A stretch of 49,748 bases of DNA from an uncultured Hyphomicrobiales bacterium (GCA_964499465.1 CAZCLJ010000003.1:1-49748); one strand, 5' to 3'. Counted from the stretch's first letter, positions 9,819-32,581 are shown. The notes: generated from the sequence alone by a model not told the origin. Translations and numbers: made by a program.

Positions 9819-9949
9819 AATTAAATTCAAAATTAATTAATAATATTAACAATTTAAGAAATCTATTCAAAAATAAAAAAAAAATATATGCTGGTAAACT
9901 TACCGATTTCATCATCATTCTTTCTTACTCCGTGTTCTGCGTTTTGCTT

Positions 9950-10184
9950 ACTTTGAATGCTCCGTAGGAGCATCCTGTTTATAGAAATAAAGTTGAAAAA
10001 TAGAAAAGCAACGTAGTTGCAACCTGTCTATGCTACAAACAGAACACTCCTACGGAGTTTTGCAAAAATAAAAAACATTTTTCTACAAACAAGTTGCAAC
10101 TACGTTGCTTTTTCTTCTAATTTTGCGAAATTTTGAAAGGCAGATGTCCAACACTTTCCCAAGTGTTGGACATCTGCTGTAAAC
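9950..10184. repeat. structured ~235-bp element E, copy 2
   Basis: See copy 1. The differences are two substitutions plus a reverse-complemented hairpin loop and one flanking base. Confidence 0.9.
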
Positions 10185-10252
10185 ACCCTCTACGCTTATT
10201 AAATGCTTTTATTTCTGCTTATCAGTTTGAAATAAGCAATATTCTGTAAAAA

Positions 10253-10834: not shown

Positions 10835-10905
10835 AAAAACCTTTTTGTAATTAATTAAAAGAATCTATCTAAATTAATGAAAATTATCAAAAAAATAAAA
10901 ATTTT

Positions 10906-12081: not shown

Positions 12082-12132
12082 AATGTTATTCTAAGCCATA
12101 CGATTAACAAGTTTATTTTGAAATATATCCCT

Positions 12133-12166
12133 AAGCCATACTATCAACTTGTTGATCGTATGGCTT
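12133..12166. repeat. family F palindrome
   Basis: aagccatactatcaacttgttgatcgtatggctt. Related copies lie at about 31581-31612 and 31751-31784, with a half copy at 12093-12112. Confidence 0.75.
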
Positions 12167-12184
12167 GAAGTATATGCTATTGTT

Positions 12185-12715
12185 TTACTTTTCTATGCCT
12201 ATTCTTGCTTCAATCCCTTCGGTGTAGTAGTGTTTAATTTCTTTCATTTCTGTAACCAAATCGGCTAAATCTATAAGTTCCTGTGGAGCATATCTCCCTG
12301 TTATTATCACTTCAATGTGCTCTGCTCTACCCAGAATAACTTTTTTAAATTCTTCAAAACTTAAAAGATTGTAATAAAGGGCAATGTTTGCTTCATCTAA
12401 AATTACAATATCAAATTCACCATTTTTTAGTTTTTTTTCACATTCTGCAAGTCCATTTAATGCAGCTTCTATGTCTTCTTTTTCTGGTTTAGAGTAAATG
12501 AAACATGCTCTGCCGAATTGCTTGAGCTGAATGTTTGGAATAGAATTTAGAATATCCAATTCGCTATAGTGCATTCCTTTAACAAATTGAGCAATGAAAA
12601 CCTTTTTTCCAGCAGCTGCAGCCCTAATTGCAAGTCCAATGGCGGCAGTAGTCTTGCCTTTACCATTGCCTGTATATACCTGAATATATCCTTTCATTAT
12701 ACTATTACTCCCCAA
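12185..12715 (-). CDS. cobO: cob(I)yrinic acid a,c-diamide adenosyltransferase (CobO/BtuR type)
   Basis: GYIQVYTGNGKGKTTAAIGLAIRAAAAGKKVFIAQFVKG ... DIVILDE pattern. The true start may be the MKGY Met at 12697. Confidence 0.85.
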   Translation of the reverse strand: MGSNSIMKGYIQVYTGNGKGKTTAAIGLAIRAAAAGKKVFIAQFVKGMHYSELDILNSIPNIQLKQFGRACFIYSKPEKEDIEAALNGLAECEKKLKNGEFDIVILDEANIALYYNLLSFEEFKKVILGRAEHIEVIITGRYAPQELIDLADLVTEMKEIKHYYTEGIEARIGIEK

Positions 12716-13372: not shown

Positions 13373-13711
13373 TTTTTATTCTCTTTTTATTAGAATTGGA
13401 TTAAACTCTAAAAACGTTTTTTTATTTTATTTTAAAAGATACTCATTTTTCTAGTGTAGTGATTCGTTAAAAGACTTATTATATTGTCTCATTTCGAACC
13501 TTCCGATAAAGGAAGACCTTTATTTAAATGGAGAAATGACATAATTTAAACTTTCGCAAAGTTAAGAAACTTTACGAAAGTGAAATTCTTCATACTTTGC
13601 GAAAGTTTCTTAACTTTCGTATAGTTTTAACAGACAAACGTAAAGATGTCATTCTGAACCCCCTGATAAAGGAAGACCTTTATTTAAATAGAGATGACAT
13701 CACTTAACACA

Positions 13712-16369: not shown

Positions 16370-16474
16370 AAACAAATTTACTAATTTTTTAAAATATAAG
16401 GTTAAGATAATTAGAGAAAAATTACTAATTTGAAAATTAGAAGAAGTCAATTTGAGAAGAAAAATAGAAGATTT

Positions 16475-17458
16475 ATGAAATTAGAAAATAAAAAATACAA
16501 TACTGTGATTGAAAAGAATACTTTTTACTTTTTTAATAAGGACTTTGAACAGCAGTATGAAGGATATATCAATTCATTAAAGGAAACATTACTTCTTTTA
16601 AAAAATGAAACAGAAAATAACGGATTTACAAAAGAAGTTTTTGAAAAGTTTTTATTTGAAAAAGAATATGGATTAAAAGCACTTTTAGCTTTAACTGGTT
16701 TTTCAAATGAATATTTTAAAAGACTAATCACTATCATTCGTATTTTGAATGATAAAGAGTTAAATAGGTTAATTTTAAAAGATAATTGGAACATAAATGA
16801 AAAATCTAGTTTTGAAAGCATAAGTGAGTGGTCAGACAATAAAATTGAGAACTTAATAAAAGAAAATGAATTTTTTAGAAAAGGCATTGTTAATCTGTTC
16901 TTTGAAGGGGCTACTATTCCATTTTTGACAAAAACAATTCCTTTATTTGAACTAAAAAAATTAAGTTTATCTAAACTTAAATTTGAAATTCCTGAGATGA
17001 TTGACACTTTAATCCGTTATAAGGAAAAAGGTTCTTATAACGGAAAAATAGAAAATAATCCAGAAACATTAATTAAATCAATTTTAAATGAGCTTAGTGT
17101 TGAGTTCGAGAAAGGAGATTTAACTGAATTAGTAACAGACGCTCCAGATAAAAAGCGAACAATGGATTTTATCATTCCAAACAAAACAAATCCAAGAATT
17201 ATTATTGAATATTCTTATCTCGTAACAACTTCCTCTGGTCAGGGAGATAAATCTAAAACTGAGATTTCAATAAATTCACTAATTACTCAGCACTATCCAA
17301 AAGCGAAGTTTATTGGCTTCGTTGATGGAATTGGCTGGTATGTTAGGAAAAAAGATTTAGAACGAATGGTAAATGCTTATTTTGATGTTTTTACTTTTCA
17401 CAATGATGAATTAGAGAGATTTGTAAAATTTATTAAAAAGGAGTTGAAAATTGTTTAA
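16475..17458 (+). CDS. putative type II restriction endonuclease
   Basis: The C-terminal MDFIIPNK..PRIIIEYSYLVTTSSGQGDKSK resembles the D..(E)x(K/S)...GSK nuclease core of some type II REases. The stop overlaps the start of the first methyltransferase. I prefer the ATG at 16475 over the TTG at 16430. Confidence 0.5.
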   Translation: MKLENKKYNTVIEKNTFYFFNKDFEQQYEGYINSLKETLLLLKNETENNGFTKEVFEKFLFEKEYGLKALLALTGFSNEYFKRLITIIRILNDKELNRLILKDNWNINEKSSFESISEWSDNKIENLIKENEFFRKGIVNLFFEGATIPFLTKTIPLFELKKLSLSKLKFEIPEMIDTLIRYKEKGSYNGKIENNPETLIKSILNELSVEFEKGDLTELVTDAPDKKRTMDFIIPNKTNPRIIIEYSYLVTTSSGQGDKSKTEISINSLITQHYPKAKFIGFVDGIGWYVRKKDLERMVNAYFDVFTFHNDELERFVKFIKKELKIV

Positions 17459-18434
17459 CGACCTAATTAATAAAATACATCAGGGCGATTGCTTAGAGCT
17501 TTTCAAACAGATACCAGATGACTCTGTTGATATTGCTTTTGCAGACCCACCTTTTAATTTAAATAAAAAATATAATAATAATAAAGATAAATTAAAAATA
17601 AAGGAATATCTTAACTGGTGCAGAAAATGGATAAATGAAATGGTTCGGGTAACAAAGCCGAGTGGTTCTATTTTTGTTCACAATATCCCAAAATGGCTGA
17701 CTTACTATTCTTCATTTCTCAATGAAATTGCGTATTTCAAGCACTGGATTAGCTGGGATGCAGCAACAGCGCCAATGGGAAAAACCTTGCAACCAGCACA
17801 CTATGGTATTCTTTTCTATACAAAACAGCCCCAAAATTTTAAATTCTACGAAGTTAGATGTCCTCATAAAAGAGCTCGAAAATCAAATATTTTAGCAAAA
17901 GATTATGGTGGGAAAAAAAGTTTGCTTCACCCATTTGGACCATTGGTTTCTGATGTTTGGACTGACATTCACCGCATTAAACACAATAAATACAGAGACG
18001 AGCATCCTTGCCAATTACCGATTCATTTGTTGGAAAGAATCATCTTGCTATCAACAGATGAAAACGATATAGTGCTTGACCCATTTAACGGAACTGGGAC
18101 AACAGCACTTGCTGCAAAGCGTTTGGGTAGAAACTTTATAGGATTTGATTTAAGCCAGGAATATATTGATATAACTAACTCGAAATTATCCAAGGAATTA
18201 TCAAATTCAAAAATTGGAGAAAAATGGGTAAGTTTTTATCTTAACCAAGTAGTTACTTTAAGGAATGATGATTGGGATTATTTAAAAGATTTCTTTTTTA
18301 TTCCAAAAAATCCAGTTGATATTGATACAATACAAATAATGCTAAAATCAAAAATTAAGCATATTCCAAATAAGAAAAACGGAAGTTCTGAAATTTCAAA
18401 CGAAAATCAAACTGCATTTTTATTTCCGGCTTAA
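17451..18434 (+). CDS. beta-class N6-adenine/N4-cytosine DNA methyltransferase, copy A
   Basis: Motif IV FADPPF near the N-terminus and motif I DPFNGTGTT near residue 210, the permuted order of PF01555-type enzymes. The TTG start overlaps the R gene stop. Confidence 0.9.
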   Translation: MFNDLINKIHQGDCLELFKQIPDDSVDIAFADPPFNLNKKYNNNKDKLKIKEYLNWCRKWINEMVRVTKPSGSIFVHNIPKWLTYYSSFLNEIAYFKHWISWDAATAPMGKTLQPAHYGILFYTKQPQNFKFYEVRCPHKRARKSNILAKDYGGKKSLLHPFGPLVSDVWTDIHRIKHNKYRDEHPCQLPIHLLERIILLSTDENDIVLDPFNGTGTTALAAKRLGRNFIGFDLSQEYIDITNSKLSKELSNSKIGEKWVSFYLNQVVTLRNDDWDYLKDFFFIPKNPVDIDTIQIMLKSKIKHIPNKKNGSSEISNENQTAFLFPA

Positions 18435-18442
18435 TTTTATAT

Positions 18443-19412: not shown

Positions 19413-20396
19413 ATGTTTAACGACCTAATTAATAAAATACATCAGGGCGATTGCTTAGAGCTTTTCAAACAGATACCAGATGACTCTGTTGATATTGCTT
19501 TTGCAGACCCACCTTTTAATTTAAATAAAAAATATAATAATAATAAAGATAAATTAAAAATAAAGGAATATCTTAACTGGTGCAGAAAATGGATAAATGA
19601 AATGGTTCGGGTAACAAAGCCGAGTGGTTCTATTTTTGTTCACAATATCCCAAAATGGCTGACTTACTATTCTTCATTTCTCAATGAAATTGCGTATTTC
19701 AAGCACTGGATTAGCTGGGATGCAGCAACAGCGCCAATGGGAAAAACCTTGCAACCAGCACACTATGGTATTCTTTTCTATACAAAACAGCCCCAAAATT
19801 TTAAATTCTACGAAGTTAGATGTCCTCATAAAAGAGCTCGAAAATCAAATATTTTAGCAAAAGATTATGGTGGGAAAAAAAGTTTGCTTCACCCATTTGG
19901 ACCATTGGTTTCTGATGTTTGGACTGACATTCACCGCATTAAACACAATAAATACAGAGACGAGCATCCTTGCCAATTACCGATTCATTTGTTGGAAAGA
20001 ATCATCTTGATTTCAACTGATGAAAACGATATAGTGCTTGACCCATTTAACGGAACTGGAACAACAGCACTTGCTGCAAAGCGTTTGGGTAGAAACTATA
20101 TTGGATTTGATTTGAGTCTGGAATATATTGATATAACTAACTCAAAATTATCCAAGGAATTATCAAATTCAAAAATTGGTGAAAAATGGGTGAGTTTTTA
20201 TCTTAACGAAGTAGTAACTTTAAGAAATGATGATTGGGATTATTTAAAAGATTTCTTCTTTATACCCAAAAATCCAGTTGATATTGATACAATTCAAATA
20301 TTGTTAAAATCAAAAATTAAGCATATTTCAAATAAGAAAAATGGAAGTTCTGAAATTTCAAATGAAAATCAAACTGCATTTTTATTTCCGGCTTAA
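19413..20396 (+). CDS. beta-class DNA methyltransferase, copy B (near-identical to 17451-18434)
   Basis: 327 aa with 6 aa differences from copy A. It has an ATG start and its own upstream spacer. Confidence 0.9.
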   Translation: MFNDLINKIHQGDCLELFKQIPDDSVDIAFADPPFNLNKKYNNNKDKLKIKEYLNWCRKWINEMVRVTKPSGSIFVHNIPKWLTYYSSFLNEIAYFKHWISWDAATAPMGKTLQPAHYGILFYTKQPQNFKFYEVRCPHKRARKSNILAKDYGGKKSLLHPFGPLVSDVWTDIHRIKHNKYRDEHPCQLPIHLLERIILISTDENDIVLDPFNGTGTTALAAKRLGRNYIGFDLSLEYIDITNSKLSKELSNSKIGEKWVSFYLNEVVTLRNDDWDYLKDFFFIPKNPVDIDTIQILLKSKIKHISNKKNGSSEISNENQTAFLFPA

Positions 20397-20416
20397 TTTA
20401 TTAGAATTATTTAATT

Positions 20417-21187
20417 TTACTTACCCGGACAAATTATTGATTTGATTTCGTTGCTAATTTGAAATTCTTTGTATGGTTTAAATTTATAAATAGCTTTTTT
20501 TATATGGCTATATTTAGAAAGGTCGCCTGCTGCACATTTTTCCCAGTAAGAGTATGCTTCATCATTTGTAAATCCGCAGAATTGCATTAAAACAAGTGCT
20601 GAGGCATAACCAGATTGGTGCCAGCCATTCCAGCAATGTATGTATATTGGTCCGGCAGTCGAATCTTTTATATTGTTATAAACTAATTCTAAAAATTGCT
20701 TTATATCCTTTTCGTTTGATAATGAGTTTTGTATATAATTCAAGGATTTACTATTTATATCAGGTCCTATTGATTTTTTTGAATCAGCAAAATTTTTGGA
20801 ATATAAATAAATAACAGTTGAAAATCCTTCTTCGAGCAAATTTTCAAGACCTTCTTCTGGCATTGGATTTTCATTGTCTCTTTTATTATTTTTATTATAA
20901 TAGTTGTTTGCTCCTCCACGATAAACAATTCCATTTAATACAACCCGCATATTTCTCGTTCCATAAACCGAAGGGCAGTTTTCACCAAAATTGTCTGTGA
21001 TTTTATCATAAAGCGATGATGTTTTATATTTTTCTTCATATTTTGTTGCTCTTTCCTTTAAGTAGTTAAAATCATGTTTTTGAGCAAGTAAAGAAAAAGC
21101 AAATAAGAATAAAATAAGATAGGTATATTTTTTTAAACTATACGTTTTAAATAAATTAGTTTTTATCATAATTTTAAAAAATAACAT
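20417..21187 (-). CDS. secreted protein-tyrosine/dual-specificity phosphatase-like protein with atypical P-loop
   Basis: N-terminal hydrophobic signal (YTYLILFLFAFSLLAQ). IYIHCWNGWHQSGYASAL resembles the HCX5R(S/T) loop, but Gln occupies the Arg position. Confidence 0.5.
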   Translation of the reverse strand: MLFFKIMIKTNLFKTYSLKKYTYLILFLFAFSLLAQKHDFNYLKERATKYEEKYKTSSLYDKITDNFGENCPSVYGTRNMRVVLNGIVYRGGANNYYNKNNKRDNENPMPEEGLENLLEEGFSTVIYLYSKNFADSKKSIGPDINSKSLNYIQNSLSNEKDIKQFLELVYNNIKDSTAGPIYIHCWNGWHQSGYASALVLMQFCGFTNDEAYSYWEKCAAGDLSKYSHIKKAIYKFKPYKEFQISNEIKSIICPGK

Positions 21188-21292
21188 CAGAATTCCTAAT
21201 TCAGTTGCAATAATAATTGAGTTATGAGATTTGCCTTGTAAAGAATAATCTCGTCGTTAAATTTATATCTGTTAAAAGACATATTATATTGT

Positions 21293-21347
21293 GTCATTTC
21301 GAAACGAAGTGAGAAATCTCACAAGTCATAGCTACCACAGAACTTGA
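21293..21347. repeat. family A element, left half only
   Basis: gtcatttcgaaacgaagtgagaaatctcacaagtcatagctaccacagaacttga, with no right arm. Confidence 0.75.
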
Positions 21348-21390
21348 AAATATGCGAAATAACATACTAAGAGTCATCAGGAGTTCTGCA

Positions 21391-21446
21391 TTACTTCAAA
21401 AAGCAATGTTCATACACTTTCGGCTCTATTTTATTTGCTAATAATT
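21391..21446 (-). repeat. orphan copy of the 3' end of the NPPY methyltransferase gene
   Basis: ttacttcaaaaagcaatgttcatacactttcggctctattttatttgctaataatt compares with 24125- ttacttcaaaaagcaatgttcatacacttttggctcaattttctttgctaataatt. Confidence 0.8.
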
Positions 21447-21460
21447 GCAATACAAAAATA

Positions 21461-21922
21461 TTAGTCTCTAATTGATGGACATATTTCATGGTCAGGGTCA
21501 AACCATAAAATTTTTAAATATCCTGATTCTCGGATACCCCATATTCGTGATTTTCCATCTAACCGAAGTGAAAATAATTGGTCAATGTCATCAAGATGTA
21601 GCTCTATTAGCCGTTTTTGAGCTTCTTTAATAATATTGGAAATATCTACAGAATGATGTTTAGATTTACCTTTAGAACCAAAAGATTGTGTTTCAAGTTC
21701 ATTCCATTTACTACATTCAAAACTTTTTAGTTTATCAAGAATTTTTTTATAGTATTCAATATCTTCACTGATTATTTTCCTGGACCAATAAGGTTCTAAA
21801 TCCATTGTTCTAAACTGCCAAGATATAAAATGATTCTTACAAGTTGCTGGTTCTAAATGTTTAGGAGTTTTATTGAATTCTTCATCATTAAAAATTGATT
21901 TAGGATTTTTATTCTTTTTCAT
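21461..21922 (-). CDS. hypothetical protein, candidate toxin/effector of Panacea operon
   Basis: 153 aa with a 4-nt overlap with the Panacea gene. The C-terminal LFSLRLDGKSRIWGIRESGYLKILWFDPDHEI weakly resembles RelE/ParE/HigB-type terminal strands. Confidence 0.45.
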   Translation of the reverse strand: MKKNKNPKSIFNDEEFNKTPKHLEPATCKNHFISWQFRTMDLEPYWSRKIISEDIEYYKKILDKLKSFECSKWNELETQSFGSKGKSKHHSVDISNIIKEAQKRLIELHLDDIDQLFSLRLDGKSRIWGIRESGYLKILWFDPDHEICPSIRD

Positions 21923-22512
21923 AATGAACTATAATATTCAGCCATTGATTCTAAAGTAATAATATTATTTCCTCTATCTGTTGGTGACAAACCTTCTCTT
22001 GAAATTAACCATGGTTCTTCATTGTGTGTTAAATCTATTAACCATTGAGCTTGACGATTACCATAATAATTTAAGACTGAGTCAATGGTTTCTTTTTGTG
22101 TAGGGCTTAATTTATCTGGATTTCCATTTTCAATTTTCTCTACTTGAAAATGACCTCGATGAAAATTAAATAATTCTCTAATTACAGGGCCATTAGACCA
22201 AGCTTCAATATTTTCAAAAAATAAAGGTGCTTCATCCCATACTAAAGACCAGGCTTGGCAATAGTATAATAATTTATGTAATTTCATAGATGACATTTGC
22301 CCTAACTTCTTTAAAATATAAGCAGCAACATCAAAAACAGATATTCTAATAGCTGAAGTTTGTGCATTAATATTTTTTGTTAATTCTTCTTTATTTTGCC
22401 ATTTTACTTTTTCATTTTCTATAGTATTACTCAAAAGTTTACTTTCACTACTATAAAAATTGGGATTACTTTTAAATTCTGGCTTAATAGTATTTATTGA
22501 ATTGATGTTCAT
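21919..22512 (-). CDS. Panacea (DUF4065, SocA-like) antitoxin-domain protein
   Basis: VFDVAAYILKKLGQMSSMKLHKLLYYCQAWSLVWDEAPLFFENIEAWSNGPVIRELF matches the DUF4065 core (KLqKLLYY.Q.w.l......lf.e..eAW..GPV). A ~60-aa N-terminal extension precedes it. Confidence 0.75.
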   Translation of the reverse strand: MNINSINTIKPEFKSNPNFYSSESKLLSNTIENEKVKWQNKEELTKNINAQTSAIRISVFDVAAYILKKLGQMSSMKLHKLLYYCQAWSLVWDEAPLFFENIEAWSNGPVIRELFNFHRGHFQVEKIENGNPDKLSPTQKETIDSVLNYYGNRQAQWLIDLTHNEEPWLISREGLSPTDRGNNIITLESMAEYYSSL

Positions 22513-22513
22513 A

Positions 22514-23038
22514 CTATTCTAATTCTAAATTATAATATTTTTTAAGAATTTCAATGCTATCATTTTTAAGTTTTATTATTCCAAATTTATCTATTTTGCC
22601 TTTAAATTCAACTAAGTCTTTTATTGCAAAGTGATAATTGAAATTAATAAGGTAATTATTACCTGGATTTTTTGAAAATGTTAAATTCAAGGTATAATCG
22701 GTTAATTTAAATGAACGAGCAATATTAATATTTTCAATTTTTGATAAATCTTTTGTCAAAAAATCATCGTCAGGTAATTGAAATAACTCTTCTAATTGTT
22801 GGTTATTTGATGCTTTATAAAGAAAATTTACTCCAAATGAATCTACAGGTGTATGTGGTAAATAGTCCGCAATTTTTTGGGAATAATCATCTATTTTTTT
22901 TAATACTTCATCATCTACTTTTATTACTGAAAAATTTAACCTATTAGCTAATATATACATTCTTAATTCATCAGTAGAAAACCTTAAAGAACCATCAAAA
23001 TTTAATGGATATTCAATAAATAAGCTGATATTAGGCAT
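22514..23038 (-). CDS. hypothetical protein, first gene of Panacea operon
   Basis: 174 aa. Its stop lies 1 nt before the Panacea gene start. No family recognised. Confidence 0.45.
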   Translation of the reverse strand: MPNISLFIEYPLNFDGSLRFSTDELRMYILANRLNFSVIKVDDEVLKKIDDYSQKIADYLPHTPVDSFGVNFLYKASNNQQLEELFQLPDDDFLTKDLSKIENINIARSFKLTDYTLNLTFSKNPGNNYLINFNYHFAIKDLVEFKGKIDKFGIIKLKNDSIEILKKYYNLELE

Positions 23039-23256
23039 TAAAAAATTGTTAACCCAATTTTCTGTGAGGATATATTAATTCCATCCGCCAGTAATAGTTA
23101 ATACCTCAAAATCTGATAACATTTTCATAATAAATACTTTATTTCAAAAAATTAATATACAAAATTAATAATTATAAACTCAATATAATAAAAATTATTT
23201 TAAAATCATTTTATCAGAGATTATATTTTTAATTATTTAATCAATTGTTTTTCTAT

Positions 23257-23316
23257 TTCAAAAAGCAATGTTCATAGACCTTAGACTCTATTTTCTTTGC
23301 TAATATTTTTAATTTA
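23257..23316 (-). repeat. orphan, more diverged copy of the 3' end of the NPPY methyltransferase gene
   Basis: ttcaaaaagcaatgttcatagaccttagactctattttctttgctaatatttttaattta. Confidence 0.7.
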
Positions 23317-23327
23317 ATATATTGACA

Positions 23328-23504
23328 TTATACTATAGTTGATTTTGTAATAAACTTCAATCTACGTTCTTCAAAATATTTCTTCAATTCTTCAAAACTC
23401 ATATTTTGTATATCATTACTTATACTATCTCTTACTTCGCGCATAAATTTTACTGCTTTGAAGTTTGGAATTACTTCATTTTTAATATTTTTAATATTTT
23501 TCAT
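23328..23504 (-). CDS. small protein downstream of PIN gene (antitoxin-like)
   Basis: 58-aa ORF MKNIKNIKNEVIPNFKAVKFMREVRDSISNDIQNMSFEELKKYFEE... It is below the ORF-track cutoff, so I translated it by hand. It overlaps the PIN stop by 14 nt. Confidence 0.4.
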   Translation of the reverse strand: MKNIKNIKNEVIPNFKAVKFMREVRDSISNDIQNMSFEELKKYFEERRLKFITKSTIV

Positions 23505-23961
23505 AGTTTATAAGCTCCTTTGGTGAACGAATATCAATAGGTTTATAACCGTTTTTAATATTGACTGCATTGTATCCTCTTATTTTAACAACATTTACAA
23601 GATGTTTAAAATTCCAACTAACTAAAACATCTATATTATTAATAGTTGCCAAAGCAATATGGAAACAATCGTTACGACTGGTTTTGCCAACAACATTCTC
23701 ATCAATATATGAATCAGCGAGTAAAACTGCATCTTCTGTTAGTTCGACTTTAATTTTCAAATTTTCTGGAACTGAATTCAACAGTTTTTTTACTTGCAAA
23801 GGTGCTGTCAGTAATTCATCTTCAGTAACACTTGAAATTACAATGATATATTCACCAGAAATTATACTATTAAATAATTTTTGAGTTTCATTGGCAAATT
23901 CCTTATCATAGTATCCACCGATAACAGAAGTGTCTATATATAGTTTTAATTGTTTATTCAT
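23491..23961 (-). CDS. PIN-domain protein (VapC-like)
   Basis: 156 aa. LYIDTSVIGG (first acidic residue), ...EDELL..., and a later D/N-rich segment NDCFHIALA...VSWNFKHL, consistent with a PIN fold. Confidence 0.7.
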   Translation of the reverse strand: MNKQLKLYIDTSVIGGYYDKEFANETQKLFNSIISGEYIIVISSVTEDELLTAPLQVKKLLNSVPENLKIKVELTEDAVLLADSYIDENVVGKTSRNDCFHIALATINNIDVLVSWNFKHLVNVVKIRGYNAVNIKNGYKPIDIRSPKELINYEKY

Positions 23962-24124
23962 CGTTCATTCAGTTTTGTAAACTTAATTAGTTAAACGAAT
24001 AATATTATTAATAATTGCATAACTTTTAGATTTAAAAGTTTATTAGAGAAATAGATAATTTTCTTTTATACCTTTTTCTTTTTTAATTATCAAATATGAA
24101 AAGTTTATTATATGTGGTAAAACA

Positions 24125-25705
24125 TTACTTCAAAAAGCAATGTTCATACACTTTTGGCTCAATTTTCTTTGCTAATAATTTTAATTTATCGCGTAAGATG
24201 CTGATTAATTCCATATATAGTTCATCGTTGCTTTTGTTGTTCATTTTACCTTTTTCGTTGCGTCCCTGAAAATGCTCGCGAATATCATAAAGAGATGCAT
24301 TTACGTTGCATTTGGGCTGTGCGTGATAATATTTCCAAAGCTCCCTACCTGCATCGAAAACTGCTTGGGCTTCGCTTGAAAAAACAAGCGGAGTTGTTCT
24401 ATTGTTAAATTCATCCGATGACTTGAAGTCATCGGATGAATGAAATATCTCATTACTTTCATTTTTTTCAAAGCTATACTTTTTCAACTTTCCTCTTATA
24501 AAATCACTCATAAAACTGCTTTCAAACTTCTCTCTTGAGTTTACTTCCTGCTCTGTAAATGGAATCCAGTGGTTTGTTCCTTCTTTTGATGTAATCCTGT
24601 TTTGGCTGTGGAATAATGAAAAAGCAAGGCAGTCATTTTGAAACTCTGTATCTGCTTTCCAGCCATCATTTGGAAATAAGAACTGGTCGCGGTCGTTCAG
24701 CCAGGTTGCTTCAAGACAATTATGTATTGTAAAATAAATACTTTGCACAGGTAAATTAAGTGGCGTTACCTTTGAAGTATGGTCTTTATTATCAAAACTA
24801 CTAATATGCACACCACGAACGCTTTGAAAATCATTTCTGCCGTGATGCATTACTCCAATTACATTTTTGTTCGTATTGCTATAATAAATTCGTAACCAAT
24901 CATTTATCCTTTTCAAACCATTATAATCTAAAATATTCTTGTTGGAAAGCTTATTTCCTTTTTCATCATAAACATCAAAATTAAAACTTGAGAATTTATG
25001 CTCTAAATCTGTATTCCAAATTTTAAATCCTATTGGAAAATAACCTTTTACATTATCAAAAGTATAAGCTGGAACAAGAAAGCCATTTTCTAATTTTGCC
25101 AGAAAATTCTGTCGGAAAGTAAAAGAATCTAAACCAGTCAAATGCTTGATTTTAGAAAATTCCGCTATTTTGCAACCTTTAAATATTGTGTAAATCTGCC
25201 ATAGAAATTGAATAAAAATCTCATTGCTTGCTTTTCTTAATTCATTATAATATTTTTTGCTAACCGCTGTTTCTTTTACTCCTGCTTTATTTTGTCTTGA
25301 ATCTTTATTCCCTGCTTCCGCATACGGCGGATTAATATACATAACTAATTTTTTTCTTTTTTCTGGGTTATTAATAATATCAAAAAGTGGTTTAGGCAGT
25401 TTTTCGAAATCATCATTTAAGAAATCGAATTGAAAAACGTGGTCTTCAAGCAGGTTTGTCCCGTTTTTAATTCGGTCTTTCATTACCTCCACATCTTGCT
25501 TATCCAAAGTCGAAGCCCAGACATTATATTTATTTATAAGTCCGGTAAGCAAATTACCCGTTCCAGCGGCGCAATCCCAAACGTAGTATTCATCTTGCCA
25601 ATTCTCACCAAGCACATCTGTTATATATTTTTGAGAAAGCTCCACCCATATTTGTGGAGTAAAGAAACTGCCCTTTCGCTCCCTCTCTTCTTTTGGCATA
25701 AGCAA
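24125..25705 (-). CDS. N-terminally truncated paralogue of the 830-aa enzyme: gamma-class N6-adenine methyltransferase plus C-terminal (TRD-like) region, without the nuclease domain
   Basis: 526 aa, collinear with residues ~305-830 of the 25815-28307 product. Motif I WDCAAGTGNLL and motif IV YINPPYAEAGNK are retained. Confidence 0.8.
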   Translation of the reverse strand: MLMPKEERERKGSFFTPQIWVELSQKYITDVLGENWQDEYYVWDCAAGTGNLLTGLINKYNVWASTLDKQDVEVMKDRIKNGTNLLEDHVFQFDFLNDDFEKLPKPLFDIINNPEKRKKLVMYINPPYAEAGNKDSRQNKAGVKETAVSKKYYNELRKASNEIFIQFLWQIYTIFKGCKIAEFSKIKHLTGLDSFTFRQNFLAKLENGFLVPAYTFDNVKGYFPIGFKIWNTDLEHKFSSFNFDVYDEKGNKLSNKNILDYNGLKRINDWLRIYYSNTNKNVIGVMHHGRNDFQSVRGVHISSFDNKDHTSKVTPLNLPVQSIYFTIHNCLEATWLNDRDQFLFPNDGWKADTEFQNDCLAFSLFHSQNRITSKEGTNHWIPFTEQEVNSREKFESSFMSDFIRGKLKKYSFEKNESNEIFHSSDDFKSSDEFNNRTTPLVFSSEAQAVFDAGRELWKYYHAQPKCNVNASLYDIREHFQGRNEKGKMNNKSNDELYMELISILRDKLKLLAKKIEPKVYEHCFLK

Positions 25706-25814
25706 ATTATAATCATTTCTGAAATTACAGTCGTTTTTTTCTATTATTTACGGTGATATCGCCACTAATTCCTTTGACTTCATTTCTTAACTTATTAAGT
25801 AAGTATATAATTTG

Positions 25815-28262
25815 TCATTTCTTCAAAAAACCATATTCATACACTTTTGGCTCAATTTTCTTTGCTAATGATTTTAATTTATCGCGTAGAATGCTGATTA
25901 ATTCCATATATCTTTCATCGCTACTTTTGTTGTTCATTTTTCCTTTTTCATTGCGTCCCTGAAAATGCTCACGAATGTCGTAAAGAGATGCGTTTACGTT
26001 GCAGTTGGGCTGTGAATGATAATACATCCAAAGCTCCCTGCCTGCATCGAAAACAGCTTGGGCTTCGCTTGAAAAAACGAGCGGAGTTGTTCTATTGTTA
26101 AATTCATCAGATGACTTGAAGTCATCGGATGAATGAAATATCTCATTACTATCATTTTTTTTAAAGCTATACTTTTTCAGTTTCCCTCTTATAAAATCAG
26201 CGATGAAACTGCTTTCAAACTTTTCTCTGGAATTTACTTCCTGCTCTGTGAATGGAATCCAGTGGTTAATTCCTTCCTGTGAAGTAATTCTGTTTTGGCT
26301 GTGAAATAAAGTAAAAGCAAGGCAGTCGTTTTGAAACTCTGTGTCTGCTTGCCAGCTGTCATTTGGATATAAAAACTGGTCGCGGTCGTTTAGCCAAGTC
26401 GCTTCAATGCAATTATGTATTGTAAAATAAATACTTTGCATAAGTAAATTATGTGGAGTTATCTTTGAAGTATGGTCTTTATTGTCAAAACTACTAATAT
26501 GCACACCGCGAACACTTTGAAAATCATTTCTGCCGTGATGCATTACTCCAATGACGTTTTTATTCGTATTGCTATAATGAATTCGTAACCAATCGTTTAT
26601 CCTTTTCAAACCATTATAATCAAAAATATTCTTGTTGGAAAGCTTGTTTCCTTTTTCATCATAAACATCAAAATTAAAACTTGAGAATTTATGCTCTGAA
26701 TCTGTATTCCAAATTTTAAAACCAATTGGGAAAGAACCTGTTACATTATCAAAAGTATAAGCAGGAACAAGAAATCCTTTTTCTAATTTTGCCAGAAAAT
26801 TCTGCCTGAATGTAAAAGCATCTAACCCAGTTAAATGCTTAATTTTAGAAAACTCCGCTATTTTGCAACCTTTAAATTTAGTATATATCTGCCAAAGAAA
26901 TTGAATAAAAATTTCATTACTGGCTTTTCTTAATTCATTATAATACTTCTTGCTTACTGCTGTTTCTTTTATTCCTGATTTATTTTTTCTTGATGATTTG
27001 TTTCCCGCTTCAGCATAGGGCGGATTAATATAAATGACTAATTTTTTTATTTTTTCCGGATTATTGATAATATCGAAAAGCGGTTTAGGTAGTTTCTCAA
27101 AATCATCATTTAAGAAATCGAATTGAAAAACGTGGTCTTCAAGCAGGTTTGTCCCGTTTTTAATTCGGTCTTTCATTACCTCTACATCTTGCTTATCCAA
27201 GGTAGAAGCCCAGACATTATATTTATTTATAAGCCCTGTAAGCAAATTACCCGTTCCCGCAGCGCAATCCCAGACATAGTATTCATCTTGCCAATTCTCA
27301 CCAAGCACATCAGCTATATATTTTTGAGAAAGTTCCACCCATATTTGCGGAGTGAAAAAACTGCCCTTTCGTTCCCTGACATCCTGTGGAACGAGCAAAT
27401 CGCGACGCTCTACAATATAGTCCCAGTATTCTTCTTTTGGTGGTCTTTCGTATTTGTTCCAAAATTGATTATGCTGCTTTTGTCCGTCATTAAAAGTAGT
27501 AGTTCTGGAGCTGAACATACCCATTTCATCGAATTTTCTGTCCAATTCGTAGTGGTCTTTTTTGAGCAGAACAAAGAGTTTTTCCTTAAGAGATACATTT
27601 TCGTAAGAAAGCAAATCAGCTAGGTAAAAGTCGCCATCAATAATCCCGTTTTTCTTTGCAATTTCCCAATTTACAGCAATAGTTGGCTTTACAGTTTGCA
27701 GCCATTTATTGTAAATGTTCATAAAATTATTTTTATCTATTCTGATTTTTGTTAAGCCGAACTTACCAACGACGAAATTGTTTTTGATAAACTTGAGCAG
27801 TTCTTTATCATTTTTTTCAAAATAAAAGAGCAATGCTTTTTCGTCAATAATGATTTTTACTTTATTTTCAACGAACTGAAACTCTTTTGTATCATGATTG
27901 GAAGGAGTAACATTCCAGTTGAAATCGTTCATATAAAATACATCGTGAATTTCGCTATATGGAATGAAAGCGATTTTTTCAGAATCGAAAGCACCAAGCA
28001 GAGCAGGGGGGAGGTGCTGAACGAAAGTTCTGGCTTTACCAATAGTCAAGATAAGCTGAGTGATAGATTTATAAATATCAGAAATTCCTTTTTTTGCCTC
28101 AGCCCAAAGAAGAGATTCGTGTTCAAAAAGCTGGTTTTTCGTTTGATGGAAAGAGACGCAAAAATCCACATTGCCAATAATTTTGGAGCAATCATACTGC
28201 CAGAAATAATCCTGAGCAATTTTATTTTTGAGTTCTTCTTCTCTTATGTTTGAATATTTCAT
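25815..28262 (-). CDS. fused PD-(D/E)xK nuclease / NPPY N6-adenine methyltransferase (type IIG/IIL-like R-M enzyme)
   Basis: N-terminal GNVDFCV...ESLLWAEAKKG is a D...ExK arrangement. WDCAAGTGNLL (motif I) precedes INPPYAEAGNK (motif IV), the gamma-class order. A ~400-aa C-terminal region could be a TRD. The MKYSNIREE start at 28262 is preferred; the ORF extends to 28307. Confidence 0.7.
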   Translation of the reverse strand: MKYSNIREEELKNKIAQDYFWQYDCSKIIGNVDFCVSFHQTKNQLFEHESLLWAEAKKGISDIYKSITQLILTIGKARTFVQHLPPALLGAFDSEKIAFIPYSEIHDVFYMNDFNWNVTPSNHDTKEFQFVENKVKIIIDEKALLFYFEKNDKELLKFIKNNFVVGKFGLTKIRIDKNNFMNIYNKWLQTVKPTIAVNWEIAKKNGIIDGDFYLADLLSYENVSLKEKLFVLLKKDHYELDRKFDEMGMFSSRTTTFNDGQKQHNQFWNKYERPPKEEYWDYIVERRDLLVPQDVRERKGSFFTPQIWVELSQKYIADVLGENWQDEYYVWDCAAGTGNLLTGLINKYNVWASTLDKQDVEVMKDRIKNGTNLLEDHVFQFDFLNDDFEKLPKPLFDIINNPEKIKKLVIYINPPYAEAGNKSSRKNKSGIKETAVSKKYYNELRKASNEIFIQFLWQIYTKFKGCKIAEFSKIKHLTGLDAFTFRQNFLAKLEKGFLVPAYTFDNVTGSFPIGFKIWNTDSEHKFSSFNFDVYDEKGNKLSNKNIFDYNGLKRINDWLRIHYSNTNKNVIGVMHHGRNDFQSVRGVHISSFDNKDHTSKITPHNLLMQSIYFTIHNCIEATWLNDRDQFLYPNDSWQADTEFQNDCLAFTLFHSQNRITSQEGINHWIPFTEQEVNSREKFESSFIADFIRGKLKKYSFKKNDSNEIFHSSDDFKSSDEFNNRTTPLVFSSEAQAVFDAGRELWMYYHSQPNCNVNASLYDIREHFQGRNEKGKMNNKSSDERYMELISILRDKLKSLAKKIEPKVYEYGFLKK

Positions 28263-28369: not shown

Positions 28370-28663
28370 TTTAAACTCTAACTCTCCCAATTTTAAGTAA
28401 TTGAAAGATTTATTAAGTAAAAAACGCATACATTTTTCTTACTGCTAGTAAAATCACCATAATAAATTATGGTGATACTCTAATTCTTAGATTAACTCCC
28501 AAATTTATTTGGGAGTTAATTTCCAATAAAGAGCGTAAAATCCTTAAACCATAAATACGTAATAGATTATTTGTTATAAAATTCAAGATAAACTGCTACT
28601 AATCTATATTTATTAAAAAAATAAATAAAGTAATACGTAAATTTGGGAGAGTTAGAGTTTAAA
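28370..28663. repeat. MITE-like element with ~24-bp terminal inverted repeats
   Basis: tttaaactctaactctcccaattt (28370-28393) pairs with aaatttgggagagttagagtttaaa (28639-28663). The interior carries the same double-hairpin module (28454-28517). Confidence 0.75.
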
Positions 28664-28960: not shown

Positions 28961-30130
28961 CTAATTCAAATCTTCGGCTTTTAGTTCAATAAAAAAAGTA
29001 CTTCCATCACCATTTTTAGATTCAGCCCAGATTTTTCCATTATGCAGTTCAATAATTTGTTTCGCAATGTAAAGCCCAAGACCAGTAGAAGACTCTCCAG
29101 CTGTCGGCAATGCAGAAAGCCGCTGAAATTTATTAAAGAGTTTTTGCATATCTTCTTTTGAAATACCCGGACCAGAGTCTTTTACAGCAAGTTGAATATT
29201 TTCAAATATATTTTCAACATTAATAATTATATTTCCACCTATTTTTGAATATTTAATAGCATTACTTACTAAATTTTCTATTGATTCTCTAATTTTAATA
29301 GGGTCTGCATAAACAATATAATCTTTGTTTCGGTGAAAGTTAAATTCGATTATTTGCTGTTTGTTTTCTATCTGAGATTTGCATTGGTAAATAATTACAT
29401 TTATAAGTTCAATTAAATCAAGATACTGTTTTTTTAATTGAATTTTTCCAGCTTCAATAACATTAGTATTTAAAATTTCAACAATTAAATTAAGCATTTG
29501 AGAAGAAGTAATAAAAATCTGCTCTAAATTTTCACAAGTATTTTGTTTAGAGTCAACTTCTTCTAATGCAATTTTCGATAACGCAATTATATTATTTAAT
29601 GGATTTTTTAAATCGTGAGCAGCTATGCTTAATAATTCTGTTTTTGAATCATTTGCTTCTTTAAGAGCTAGCATAGCAAGAAGGTTAATTTGAGAGTGAG
29701 CTAAAATTAAGAAATAACTATCTAATATTTTTAAAGAACCATCATCAAATTCTACGATAATTGGTCCGTCGTAGTTGTCTTTTTCTCTTGAAAGAGCAAT
29801 TTGCACTGCTGTAGATATGTCCATTGAAAATGGTAATTTGAGAATTTCTTCCTTTTCGATTTGCTCAAAGAACACAACGATTTCTCTTTTAGAAAAGAGG
29901 TCAAGCCAAAAGGGTTTGCTAAGAGATTCGTGATATTGTTTTCTTGAAATAAATCCAAAATATTTTTTCTCATTCGTAAGGATTATTCCGGGCAAAGCTG
30001 GATTATTTTCAAAAGTTGAGCGAATTATATTAACTGGTTTAGATATTTCTATCTTATCGTCATATAGAATTAAATCACATAAAATTGATTTTAAATGCAA
30101 ATCATTTACTTTTTTTAATTGCTTTGTCAT
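28961..30130 (-). CDS. cytoplasmic sensor histidine kinase
   Basis: H-box LSIAAHDLKNPLNNI. HATPase_c N, G1 and G2 boxes (NAIKYS, DSGPGI, GLGLYIAKQI). No TM segments, and a ~160-aa N-terminal sensor-like domain. Confidence 0.85.
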   Translation of the reverse strand: MTKQLKKVNDLHLKSILCDLILYDDKIEISKPVNIIRSTFENNPALPGIILTNEKKYFGFISRKQYHESLSKPFWLDLFSKREIVVFFEQIEKEEILKLPFSMDISTAVQIALSREKDNYDGPIIVEFDDGSLKILDSYFLILAHSQINLLAMLALKEANDSKTELLSIAAHDLKNPLNNIIALSKIALEEVDSKQNTCENLEQIFITSSQMLNLIVEILNTNVIEAGKIQLKKQYLDLIELINVIIYQCKSQIENKQQIIEFNFHRNKDYIVYADPIKIRESIENLVSNAIKYSKIGGNIIINVENIFENIQLAVKDSGPGISKEDMQKLFNKFQRLSALPTAGESSTGLGLYIAKQIIELHNGKIWAESKNGDGSTFFIELKAEDLN

Positions 30131-31795: not shown

Positions 31796-31858
31796 ATCAC
31801 TAATCACTAATCACTAATCACTAATCACTAATCACTAATCACTAATCACTTATCATTA
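31796..31858. repeat. heptanucleotide microsatellite, 9 units
   Basis: 7 x ATCACTA, then ATCACTT, then ATCATTA. The last unit contains the complement of the yggS stop codon (31856-31858). Confidence 0.95.
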
Positions 31859-32581
31859 AAGGTTATAATTCCTTTCACCGAAGAGATTTGTTCCAATACG
31901 TATTAAAGTAGCACCTTCTTCAATGGCAATCTGATAATCTCCGGACATTCCCATTGAGAGATGGTGAATATTTAGGTCTGGAAATATTTTATTTACTTCA
32001 TCAAATTTTTGATGAAGTAATTTAAATTCAGAGCGAATAATACTTTCATTATTGGAAAAAGAGCCGATAGTCATTAGACCTTTAATTGAAATATTTTTAA
32101 GTTTTGAAATCTGTTCAAATAGATTTAAAGTATCGTTTGGGGAGCAGCCGAATTTTGATTCTTCTAAAGATGTATTAACCTGAATTAAAATATCAATATT
32201 TCTGTTAATATTTTCAGCTTGTTTGGAAATTTCCTGAGCAAGCAGAAAAGAATCAACAGAATGGACAAGCGAAACGAAGTCAATGATATATTTAACTTTA
32301 TTGCGTTGCAAGTGTCCAATGAAATGCCATTTGGGGCTGTATTTTGTGTGTTCAATCTGATTATGTTTTTCAAGAAGTTCCTGAACATAGTTCTCGCCGA
32401 TATTACTGATGCCAGTATTTAAAGCAAACTCGACAAAAGAAATTGGCTTTGTTTTCGAAACAGCAATGACAGTTATGTCATTTGCATTTCTGTTGCATTT
32501 TTTAGCAGTAGAAATAATATTGTTATTAATTTCGCTCCAGCGTTGATTTATATCACTTTGGGTTAATGGCTCATTTTTCAT
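31856..32581 (-). CDS. yggS: YggS family pyridoxal-phosphate homeostasis protein
   Basis: AVSKTKP, GENYVQEL, WHFIGHLQRNKVKYI, LSMGMSGDY..AIEEGAT.IRIGT.LFG. The MKNEPL start at 32581 is preferred; the ORF extends to 32620. Confidence 0.85.
   Translation of the reverse strand: MKNEPLTQSDINQRWSEINNNIISTAKKCNRNANDITVIAVSKTKPISFVEFALNTGISNIGENYVQELLEKHNQIEHTKYSPKWHFIGHLQRNKVKYIIDFVSLVHSVDSFLLAQEISKQAENINRNIDILIQVNTSLEESKFGCSPNDTLNLFEQISKLKNISIKGLMTIGSFSNNESIIRSEFKLLHQKFDEVNKIFPDLNIHHLSMGMSGDYQIAIEEGATLIRIGTNLFGERNYNL

Follow-up and report, generated by a model that had tools for sequence, protein, structure and literature searches.

Integron arrays and CALINs consist of compact units, each of which ends in a site of ~60 nt soon after a stop codon, and from a fixed point onwards these units follow one another in a single orientation. 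The site, attC, is an imperfect inverted repeat (R''-L''/L'-R') that folds into a hairpin, and integrons have a tyrosine recombinase of the IntI type next to the array, which CALINs by definition lack. Some integrative elements insert at gene 3' ends, restoring the gene that they hit and duplicating att, so that n inserts leave n+1 copies. A further pattern, 'insertion with long target duplication', was reportedly described by Nobusato et al. in 2000. Restriction–modification (RM) genes without mobility genes have been found between direct target repeats of 30-420 bp (Furuta, Abe & Kobayashi 2010, PMC2853133). These repeats (46-423 bp, >30 bp) occur once where a relative has an empty site, and some of them overlap the 3' ends of genes, and the cases are RM-linked and mostly come from naturally competent species (PMC2853133). 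Displaced 3' regions are also known from rhs, from cdiA-CT/cdiI orphans and from T6SS effector–immunity arrays (Jackson 2009 and Koskiniemi 2014, via PMC5361080; Kirchberger 2017). [quoted passage not shown]

Here, we analysed a window of 49.7 kb (the whole stretch of DNA under study), in which the last ~63-66 nt of the 815-aa gene A are present as four direct copies. Two of these end genes A and B, and the other two, C and D, are orphans that each follow a toxin–antitoxin (TA) module (Table 1). As in long target duplication, repeats of 63-66 nt flank inserts of 0.8 and 1.8 kb that have no mobility gene, which is within the limits for that pattern (repeat >30 bp, insert <20 kb). There, however, the insert is the RM system, whereas here the RM gene is the target and the inserts are of TA type, with no R and M genes inside them. 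Moreover, the target was used at least two times in series here, and one insert with its repeat recurs as a block in another species. As in C-terminal displacement, a full-length gene (A) is followed in the same orientation by 5'-truncated 3' copies (B, 1585 nt; C, 66 nt; D, 63 nt). In both, each displaced fragment is accompanied by the genes formerly located behind it, a description that B fits directly. Displaced pieces in those arrays are a variable functional tip with its immunity gene, whereas C and D are conserved and encode nothing useful, and their companion genes are unrelated TA modules rather than the cognate partners of a tip. The cassettes resemble those of integrons and CALINs in that they are compact, in a single orientation and followed by a gene-end copy close after the stop codon. 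Unlike in those systems, there is no attC-type hairpin and no integrase in the window, the 'site' copies coding sequence and the cassettes keep their own promoter leaders. Finally, as in att duplication, gene A is intact and the insert is bounded on its far side by a displaced copy of the gene end, but the inserts (0.4-1.8 kb) have no recombinase and the duplicated length differs from case to case. Overall, the locus forms a small defence island, built behind an RM gene that is Type IIG-like and horizontally mobile. It looks like a known pattern in an unusual version and not like a novel type of mobile element.

Table 1. Features of the locus, in window coordinates.
Feature	Position	Strand	Remarks
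Putative invertible promoter segment (inverton)	28370..28663	.	30-nt inverted repeats; about 65-110 nt upstream of gene A
Gene A, 815 aa	25815..28262	-	Type IIG-like; longest ORF begins at 28307
Repeat copy A	25816-25881	-	actual end of gene A; from repeat search and self-BLASTN
A-B spacer, 108 nt	25708..25815	-	first ~30 nt resemble the native gene tail in L003
Gene B	24125..25705	-	copy of A without nuclease domain; methylase and recognition region
Repeat copy B	24123-24188	-	end of gene B, YEHCFLK and stop codon
Native gene-unit tail	24104..24122	-	L003/L004 homology runs past the B stop codon and stops at 24104
PIN block	23254..24105	-	one conserved unit: leader, PIN gene, 58-aa gene, orphan C
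PIN-domain protein, 156 aa	23491..23961	-	VapC-like putative toxin; PF01850, E = 6e-5
58-aa ORF	23328..23504	-	putative antitoxin; 14-nt overlap with PIN gene
Orphan copy C	23251-23316	-	reads KLKILAKKIESKVYEHCFLK and stop codon; starts 11 nt past stop codon of 58-aa ORF
Three-gene Panacea operon	21461..23131	-	PF13274; native promoter leader starts about 15 nt after C
Panacea operon gene 1	22514-23131	-	in-frame stop at codon 18; open part 174 aa
SocA/Panacea-domain protein, 197 aa	21919-22512	-	PF13274
153-aa operon protein	21461-21922	-	last gene of Panacea operon
Orphan copy D	21389-21451	-	ends in LLANKIEPKVYEHCFLK and stop codon; starts 9 nt past last stop codon of operon
MITE-like composite	21271..21388	.	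two short repeat families; abuts D 5 nt past stop codon
Other MITE-like copies	4832-4950, 7654-7757, 8751-8868, 8374-8424, 13466-13498, 49512-49547		

Gene A, its copies and the modules between them

Gene A is predicted to encode a Type IIG-like nuclease–methylase fusion. It has an N-terminal PD-(D/E)xK nuclease-like domain, a gamma-class N6-adenine methyltransferase with NPPY, a variable target-recognition region (alignment columns about 425-620) and a conserved C-terminus that ends in LAKKIEPKVYEYGFLKK. D33, E55 and K57 are invariant in 54 sequences, and DCAAGTGNLL (motif I, before NPPY) and NPPY itself are conserved. It has >8000 homologues of about 800-815 aa, and the gene is widespread, solitary and horizontally mobile. 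Unlike known Type IIG enzymes, gene A has no sequence-level family match in Pfam or the PDB and is matched by its predicted fold alone. The full protein found no match in Pfam, NCBIfam or PADLOC, and its AlphaFold model (pLDDT 74) matches BpuSI, DrdV, LlaBIII and CamA at a TM of about 0.2-0.25 over multi-domain alignments. A PDB sequence search with the gene A profile returned only Rab matches, which were spurious, and exact-protein look-ups of gene A and the downstream phosphatase gave no match. As in the BpuSI, MmeI and DrdV families, a single polypeptide combines a PD-(D/E)xK N-terminus, a gamma-class adenine methylase and a recognition region, and alleles swap their recognition regions, as gene A homologues do. 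Such allelic diversity has been reported for a Type IIG gene (PMC2853133). The homologues P0001 and P0004, for example, have the same ends and different central recognition regions. The sequences indicate that recombination inside gene A is frequent and that the gene is mosaic.

The preliminary description of this DNA had called gene B a truncated paralogue. It is indeed homologous to gene A over 1585 nt (90.5% identity; 85-97% in 150-nt windows, so that A and B are mosaic), but it is preceded by an unrelated leader of 108 nt. Beyond its first part, this spacer extends the coding sequence of B at the N-terminus (MKSKELVAI..); the frame of this extension is open in L004 and interrupted by a stop codon in the window. 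The Eco57I system is a Type IIG enzyme with a separate methylase, and here too a methylase-only gene adjoins gene A. The same tandem of A, spacer and B is found in L004 and L092 (88.9% identity over 4304 nt), where B is an intact ORF of 550 aa. In L004, A and B are 100% identical in each 150-nt window between alignment positions 100 and 1450. The tail behind B matches the tail in L003 (p = 0.007). Elsewhere, L068 contains three full-length copies in tandem, and truncated 3' remnants occur in L090 and in the Helicobacter pylori plasmid pVN1291.

Four copies of the gene end had been described before, and they are real. A repeat search (family D2) placed them at 21389-21451, 23251-23313, 24123-24185 and 25816-25878, at 81-92% identity to the reference copy, with a chance expectation of none, and self-BLASTN of the window matched every pair at E = 1e-10 to 7e-19 and found no fifth copy. 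A 48-nt pattern with at most three mismatches matched three of the four copies and nothing in 100 shuffles; the orphans align far better than shuffled sequence. Among metagenome contigs, all seven with this pattern have it as the end of a gene A homologue rather than scattered at unrelated sites (five stop at the contig edge or contain the whole gene, and L090 holds only a 273-nt remnant). All four copies lie on the minus (coding) strand and span from codon -21/-22 to 2-5 nt beyond the stop codon. B and D share an exact stretch of 32 nt, and orphan D is 94.8% identical to copy B. Orphans C and D are discrete pieces that hold only the conserved last 19-21 codons, adjoined by genes unrelated to the enzyme, and no further remnant of gene A, including the 108-nt spacer and fragments of the gene body, was found in the cassette region. 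Their left limits nearly coincide (C at -66, D at about -58 to -63). Significant extension of C beyond the repeat is confined to the adjacent 13 nt, and homology of D reaching into the preceding ORF was ruled out because the 153-aa protein aligns with its homologue through the final residue. All three cassette-to-orphan joins lie 0-11 nt past a stop codon; the orphans start close behind the stop codon as described before, at 9-11 nt instead of 12-15 nt. The native tail is present after A and B and absent after C and D.

The units bracketed by the copies are genuine modules, as had been proposed. PIN cassette and orphan together (852 nt) recur as one block in another Kapabacteria species, at 88.9% identity over 854 aligned columns (L112-L121, ten further contigs from NCBI, JGI, ENA and Logan), where the 58-aa ORF is kept with PIN at 85% amino acid identity. 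There, the block has a MITE on one side and, on the other, a gene of 364 aa that lies upstream of smc, with no gene A homologue adjacent. In L003 and L098, which contain the closest relatives of gene A, the gene itself is the immediate upstream neighbour of this same smc. Cassette and site appear to have moved between genomes together, as the PIN block. What looked like a 55-nt duplication polymorphism in L112 was a scaffold gap of N. Homologues of the PIN protein number in the thousands, with 66-95% identity among the matches listed. In the second module, the PF13274 protein (E = 1.9e-18; 67.9 bits against a cut-off of 25.7) forms an operon with a putative toxin, as in Panacea (SocA-like) modules. 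The operon ends are native and lie within about 10-15 nt of the flanking orphans. The three-gene order is kept in L084 and L085, where no flanking repeats were found around the operons. The gene tail may also resemble the flanks of the MITE-like elements.

Gene-end loci in other genomes and divergence among the copies

A recognisable gene end is present at 76 homologue loci, and 56 of these have at least 3 kb of downstream sequence. None of these 56 other loci contains a short orphan, and tandem paralogues are the only copies among them, in L004 and L068. The gene end is therefore not the general hotspot for cassettes that had been suggested. For two homologues, P0007 and P0117 (11 and 20 contigs), the neighbouring genes are the same at every place listed, so no variation in context was seen for these alleles across many samples. 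Among about 100 loci, neither PIN, Panacea nor the ORF of L093 (see below) was found behind other gene A homologues, and we found no genome with PIN or Panacea directly behind an intact homologue without an orphan. L003 and L098 have a single gene end with its tail and L004 has A and B, all without a cassette, but as their flanking genes differ from those of the window, they do not represent true allelic empty sites. Viral contigs contained just three matches, which were distant or unremarkable.

L093 is an independent case of an insert with an orphan gene end. Behind its homologue (58% identical), the gene end is followed from 5 nt past the stop codon by an ORF of 119 aa, which has no Pfam match, and then by an orphan. 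This orphan has a 35-nt exact match, and its left limit may reach a position similar to that of C and D (p about 0.015). In L090, the 3' remnant lies behind an HsdS-like pseudogene. The retained fragments thus measure about 45 to 66 nt (L093), 63 and 66 nt (window), 273 nt (L090) and 1585 nt (B).

C and D differ from B in 11 places, 9 of which are third codon positions (p = 0.0014; G>T, T>A and A>G changes), from which it follows that C and D diverged as coding sequence. Several of the variants are synonymous and also occur in the gene ends of other genomes (ATA, CCG, AAG and GTC in L004). The orthologous orphan in L112, which has no such gene adjacent, has 4 of 11 differences at third positions, with decay at random positions and an internal stop. 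By their coding-type divergence, C and D were once the ends of working gene alleles. B, C and D also have CAT TGC (His-Cys) in common, whereas all other alleles seen, including the L112 orphan, encode Tyr/His-Gly, a contrast indicative of gene conversion between the copies of this genome. A diversity-generating retroelement was rejected as the source of the differences, because the window contains no RT domain and there is no adenine-specific pattern.

Origin of the orphan gene ends

We give about an even chance to a reading in which the orphans are scars of illegitimate joins into the gene end, which then served as homology arms for ordinary recombination. Each orphan would be the former 3' end of a gene A allele, into which DNA with a TA module was joined by one illegitimate (microhomology) event. 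The join point would be ATAAATTAAAATTATTA, a run of A and T only that lies about 50-66 nt ahead of the stop codon, and a complete gene end would have been kept or supplied upstream at joining. Joins of this kind match what is already known as 'insertion with long target duplication' and as 'C-terminal displacement'. Copy B would be a relic of the same type with a longer retained piece. Module and orphan would then travel as a single block. As the orphan shares homology with the gene end of every allele, ordinary RecA-type recombination between gene end and orphan could place the block behind a further allele, stack or delete blocks and convert copies, and a dedicated recombinase would not be required. 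Here, we infer the illegitimate first join, the order of events and the use of the orphans as homology arms. This reading draws support from the discreteness and coding-type divergence of C and D, the conserved PIN block, the conversion between copies and frequent recombination within the gene, the case of L093 with the remnant in L090, and the published precedents.

The evidence supports the earlier proposal that recombination at the 3' end of the gene left the repeats as relics. Of the two mechanisms it suggested, an att-like site fits less well than homologous exchange with the gene end as anchor, as fragment lengths vary, the repeat has no hairpin or dyad, and the gene is visibly mosaic with copies that converted one another. 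Several observations count against scars of illegitimate joins. The left limits of C and D nearly coincide, unlike those of random joins, which is explained solely by the A/T-only run at this position, and the joins just past stop codons are tidier than random breakage. The missing native tail after C and D requires extra events, neither module was found directly behind an intact homologue in the absence of an orphan, the arrangement is rare among the homologue loci, and an arm of 63 nt is short for RecA-dependent exchange.

Alternatively, the ~65-nt unit could be an attachment site, at which a recombinase encoded elsewhere inserts cassettes at the gene's 3' end and duplicates the site, as with attC. 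The unit is discrete and its limits are similar in C and D and possibly in L093, the cassettes are compact with the site directly behind their last stop codon, and the PIN cassette takes its site into another genome and context. Also, the putative inverton upstream of gene A, which is found reversed in L003, the closest relative, implies that this genome has at least one site-specific invertase acting nearby. The repeat copies, however, do not resemble the inverton arms. DNA folding of the four copies on both strands revealed no hairpin or dyad (MFE -0.8 to -6.6 kcal/mol; z -1.22 to +1.52 against shuffles), which rules out an attC-like hairpin, and neither an Rfam family nor a tRNA target was found for the repeat. 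The lack of a visible integrase or transposase in the window was borne out by a domain scan of its ORFs of at least 90 aa that were taken as likely genes and are not nested in longer genes, which found no recombinase, integrase or transposase domain; the cassettes encode only PIN and the 58-aa protein, or the three proteins of the Panacea operon. A fixed site also sits poorly with retained fragments of about 45 to 1585 nt and with the lack of cassettes at the 56 other loci. Moreover, the PIN block is separated from copy B by the native tail, and a crossover within the site would not have preserved this tail. We therefore consider an attachment site unlikely. We regard as very unlikely an integron-like cassette system of Kapabacteria and Bacteroidota that has the gene end as its recombination site. 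In such a system, either a recombinase encoded elsewhere or the nuclease domain of the enzyme itself would capture TA and defence cassettes and stack them behind the Type IIG gene, and units of cassette and site would move between genomes.

Unequal crossing-over could have produced tandem paralogues A-B-B'-B'', of which the orphans would be the last remains after TA modules replaced the bodies of B' and B'', with the repeats having no role in mobility. Tandem copies and truncated 3' remnants do arise, as described above, and the coding-type divergence of C and D suits former gene copies. Yet two independent replacements would have to end within about 3-8 nt in a 1.6-kb unit, no remnants of spacer or body survive, the PIN block is portable and found without other gene pieces, and L093 has the same layout behind a single-copy gene, which makes this origin quite unlikely. 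It is highly improbable that the ~65 nt are kept for a function, for example as a signal for mRNA processing or 3'-end formation that each module would reuse, as an antisense promoter or as a short peptide. C and D do retain open frames of 19-20 codons to the original stop codon, and as the coding strand has no terminator-like site from one module to the next, a single transcript could span the array (the sole minus-strand terminator-like hairpin of the scanned stretch is in the MITE after D). The copies, however, fold no better than shuffles, contain no terminator and are not enriched in promoter-like matches; the frames lack a start codon and upstream continuity, with a stop codon before C and D out of frame with the preceding ORF, and the L112 orphan is decaying. 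Lastly, an assembly artefact, in which strain variants or a small circle were joined at a shared k-mer, is scarcely credible. Logan contig L001 begins and ends in the 32-nt B/D stretch, as would a 2.7-kb circle. Nevertheless, the stretch from PIN through C and Panacea to D is 100% identical in independent Logan assemblies of two sequencing runs, breaking exactly in the B/D repeat, so that the internal junctions are not an artefact of this assembly. B followed by the tail is the native order in L003 and L004, PIN with its orphan is found in the ten further contigs, L093 is an unrelated assembly, and the window contains no N.

Possible consequences for defence islands

If the orphans are indeed scars that became homology arms, a short relic of a widespread mobile gene acts as a portable homology arm, and any module fused to this relic could be placed behind any allele without a transposase or integrase. 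This would be a simple route for the growth of defence islands beside RM genes, and 'insertion with long target duplication', which still lacks an explanation, would gain a specific case open to testing. If a recombinase is involved instead, the locus would point to a new cassette-capture system. Gene-end scars could be searched for systematically, which may provide insight into the history of defence loci.

The gene A end and its orphan copies

The 3' end of gene A, which encodes an 815-aa Type IIG-like enzyme, occurs four times as a direct repeat: at the true ends of gene A and of B, its copy without the nuclease domain, and as orphan copies C and D, 3' of the PIN and Panacea modules, respectively. 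The locus lies between a histidine kinase gene (28961-30130) and a phosphatase gene (20417-21187). All genes of the locus are on the minus strand. In the coding direction, the repeat starts at about codon -21 of the gene and stops 2-5 nt beyond the stop codon. A 48-nt pattern with up to three mismatches matched three of the four copies (0 matches in 100 shuffles), self-BLASTN connected all copy pairs (E = 1e-10 to 7e-19), and two independent Logan assemblies contained, at 100% identity, the whole stretch that begins inside the end of B, includes PIN, C and the Panacea operon, and reaches D. This confirms the four-copy repeat reported in the preliminary description. Both assemblies end within a 32-nt exact match common to B and D. 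Self-BLASTN of the 49.7 kb window detected no fifth copy.

Coordinates of gene A and of the four copies of its 3' end
Feature	Position	Strand	Description
Gene A	25815-28262	minus	Type IIG-like
Repeat copy A	25816-25881	minus	direct repeat, ~63-66 nt
Repeat copy B	24123-24188	minus	direct repeat, ~63-66 nt
Orphan copy C	23251-23316	minus	direct repeat, ~63-66 nt
Orphan copy D	21389-21451	minus	direct repeat, ~63-66 nt

The PIN module consists of a PIN-domain gene (PF01850) and a 58-aa ORF. The Panacea module is a three-gene operon with a SocA/Panacea protein (PF13274, E = 2e-18), and its gene order is repeated in two other loci (L084 and L085). The operon is complete, as its last protein aligned with its homologue through the final residue and the homologous leader starts ~15 nt past C; D begins 9 nt downstream of the operon's end. 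A premature in-frame stop (23080-23131; MKMLSDFEVLTITGGWN* versus the homologous protein P0122) interrupts the first gene, which is open in close homologues.

Copy D adjoins a composite element made up of two short repeat families, both dispersed through the window. Short interspersed repeats of at least two families lie at 4832-4950, 7654-7757, 8751-8868, 13466-13498 and 21271-21347, with further ones at 8374-8424, 21338-21388 and 49512-49547, and in two other genomes (L004 4370-4424; L112 ~7420-7510). One family is a ~85-nt MITE with terminal inverted repeats TGTCATTTCGAAACGAAGTGAG..., the other a ~40-nt motif that ends in ..CAGGAGTTCTG. Both occupy several gene-free stretches and repeatedly adjoin the gene A end or orphans. 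The window also contains two heptanucleotide tandem arrays (ATCATTA x17.6, 5151-5273; ATCACTA x9.1, 31796-31859) and a 189-nt tandem repeat (866-2172; 6.9 copies, 78% matches) within the gene of a 565-aa beta-propeller / T9SS-sorted protein. A 986-nt direct duplication (17452-18437 and 19414-20399, 97.6%) is exactly the ORF of a 327-aa N6/N4 methyltransferase. Its copies flank a 311-aa methyltransferase gene, and upstream lies a 342-aa ORF (16430-17458) without a family match. This gene group is possibly a second restriction–modification system with a duplicated methylase.

Gene A and its tandem copies

More than 8000 homologues of gene A, 800-815 aa in length, were found; they belong to Bacteroidota, Ignavibacteriota/Kapabacteria and other groups. 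Among the matches listed, which include several phyla, identity is typically ~67%. Its protein had no match in Pfam, NCBIfam or PADLOC. Residues D33, E55 and K57 are invariant in the family and are accompanied by motif I followed by NPPY. Structures matched by the AlphaFold model (pLDDT 74) are those of BpuSI and DrdV (both Type IIG), LlaBIII (Type ISP) and the methylase CamA. Both protein ends are strongly conserved, with a variable central block (alignment columns ~425-620). The homologues P0001 and P0004 have the same ends and different central blocks, the result of a recombinational swap of the target-recognition region. They are alleles at one chromosomal position upstream of smc (L003 and L098), with near-identical N- and C-terminal parts and unrelated central blocks. 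Downstream neighbours of gene A vary between nearly all genomes (154 of 184 neighbour proteins are singletons), and homologues also occur on Helicobacter pylori mobilizable plasmids. These features identify gene A as a solitary, horizontally mobile, Type IIG-like gene with recombinational segment swapping. One of the plasmids (L111, pUM157, 4001-6900) has a 47%-identical homologue broken into three pieces. In another (L110, pVN1291, 4001-4552), the corresponding position behind the relaxase gene retains no more than the final 182 codons, which are annotated as a hypothetical protein.

Upstream of gene A, at a distance of ~65-110 nt, a 294-nt segment (28370-28663) is bordered by inverted repeats of 30 nt that are 93% complementary. 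The corresponding segment of L003, the closest relative, is 91.8% identical and has the opposite orientation relative to the gene. The segment looks like a putative invertible promoter switch, in which case the enzyme would be phase-variably expressed and a site-specific invertase would be encoded elsewhere.

B is 90.5% identical to A across 1585 nt; the homology begins precisely where the methylase domain does, and the 108 nt before it are of different sequence. The arrangement of A, spacer and B was also found in a Kapaibacterium MAG (L004 = L092; 88.9% identity over 4304 nt), in which the B ORF is intact (550 aa) and has a 25-residue N-terminus of its own. This N-terminal extension, open in L004, is interrupted in the window (25740-25790) by an in-frame stop (MKSKELVAISP*). 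Both B and the first Panacea gene may be decaying or may be re-initiated downstream. Between alignment positions 100 and 1450, A and B of L004 (205-4341) are 100% identical in each 150-nt comparison window, whereas those of the window form a mosaic of 85-97% identity (overall difference ~9.5%). These patterns indicate probable gene conversion and allelic exchange; the uniformity in L004 reflects either concerted evolution by gene conversion or assembly collapse. B is followed by a ~20 nt tail that is also found 3' of the gene in L003 and L004, with homology ending at 24104. This native tail is absent after C and D.

Gene ends and orphans in other genomes

The most telling result among other genomes came from ten contigs (NCBI, JGI, ENA and Logan; L112-L121) of another Kapabacteria species. 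Here the PIN leader, both PIN module genes and orphan C (24105-23254) are kept as one block (88.9% over 854 aligned columns), flanked by a MITE and by a 364-aa gene that lies upstream of smc, and the orphan is the sole nearby trace of gene A. In the closest gene A relatives (L003 and L098), gene A lies directly upstream of the same smc.

We surveyed 76 homologue loci in which the gene end could be recognised; at least 3 kb of downstream sequence was present in 56 of them. None of these 56 contained a short orphan of its own gene end at the protein or DNA level, and only tandem paralogues were found (L004 and L068). The latter, a Cytophagales MAG (4395-12430), has three full-length tandem paralogues of 816, 814 and 809 aa, which agree completely in their last 40 nt. 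The second and third are separated by a 200-aa ORF. Two homologues, found on 11 and 20 contigs, had identical neighbour genes at all places listed. The gene end is therefore not the general cassette hotspot that had been proposed. Nor was the repeat found scattered at unrelated sites: a pattern scan of metagenome contigs gave seven matches, all at ends of the gene A family.

Two of these seven matches, L093 and L090, are informative. The L093 gene has an identity of only 58%; after its stop codon come 5 nt, a 119-aa ORF and, immediately after that ORF, an orphan gene end with a 35-nt exact match to the gene end and synonymous-type differences in the last 12 nt (FLKE* versus FLRE*). In L090, a 273-nt 3' remnant lies behind an HsdS-like pseudogene.

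C and D differ from B at 11 sites, 9 of which are third codon positions (p = 0.0014), and several of these differences are synonymous variants also present in L004 gene ends. B, C and D have His-Cys (CAT TGC) in common, where Tyr/His-Gly is present in every other allele and in the L112 orphan. C and D are thus former ends of working alleles that have exchanged sequence with resident gene ends. The L112 orphan, which has no adjacent gene copy, has differences in first, second and third codon positions and an internal stop.

Origin of the orphan copies

The repeat showed no secondary structure above shuffled controls, no Rfam match and no terminator within it, and promoter-like matches were not enriched in the region. 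Among ORFs of at least 90 aa in the window taken as likely genes, no recombinase or transposase domains were found, which bears out the earlier remark that no integrase or transposase is visible. The locus is not an integron, because hairpin and integrase were both tested for and neither was found; nor is it a self-contained integrative element.

The retained gene pieces measure ~45 to 66 nt (L093), 63 and 66 nt (orphans of the window), 273 nt (L090) and 1585 nt (B). We favour, at an even level of confidence, the reading that the orphans are scars of illegitimate joins in the gene's end and that module and orphan were then moved by ordinary homologous recombination. Each orphan would result from one illegitimate join of incoming DNA into the last ~65 nt of the gene, at a point within an A/T-only run of 17 nt, while a complete gene end was retained upstream. 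The block of module and orphan could then spread, stack, be deleted or be converted through ordinary homologous recombination of the orphan with gene ends. This reading has weak points: C and D, and possibly L093, have left limits that nearly coincide (p ~0.015), every join is tidily placed just past a stop codon, C and D lack tails, and the homology arm is short. Because of these same features, an att-like site used by a recombinase encoded elsewhere retains some weight, although we consider it unlikely. In-place decay of further tandem paralogues is slightly less likely still; no other remnants of gene A were found anywhere between B and D.

The locus matches the published pattern of 'insertion with long target duplication' (PMC2853133), as well as the model, put forward for arrays of orphaned 3' regions, of homology-facilitated illegitimate recombination and displacement (PMC5361080). 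It works like such a displacement or long-target-duplication scar array. Unlike in the described cases, where it is cargo, the restriction–modification gene is here the target. The cargo here consists of toxin–antitoxin modules, and one block of cargo and scar is common to two species, in which it lies in different contexts.
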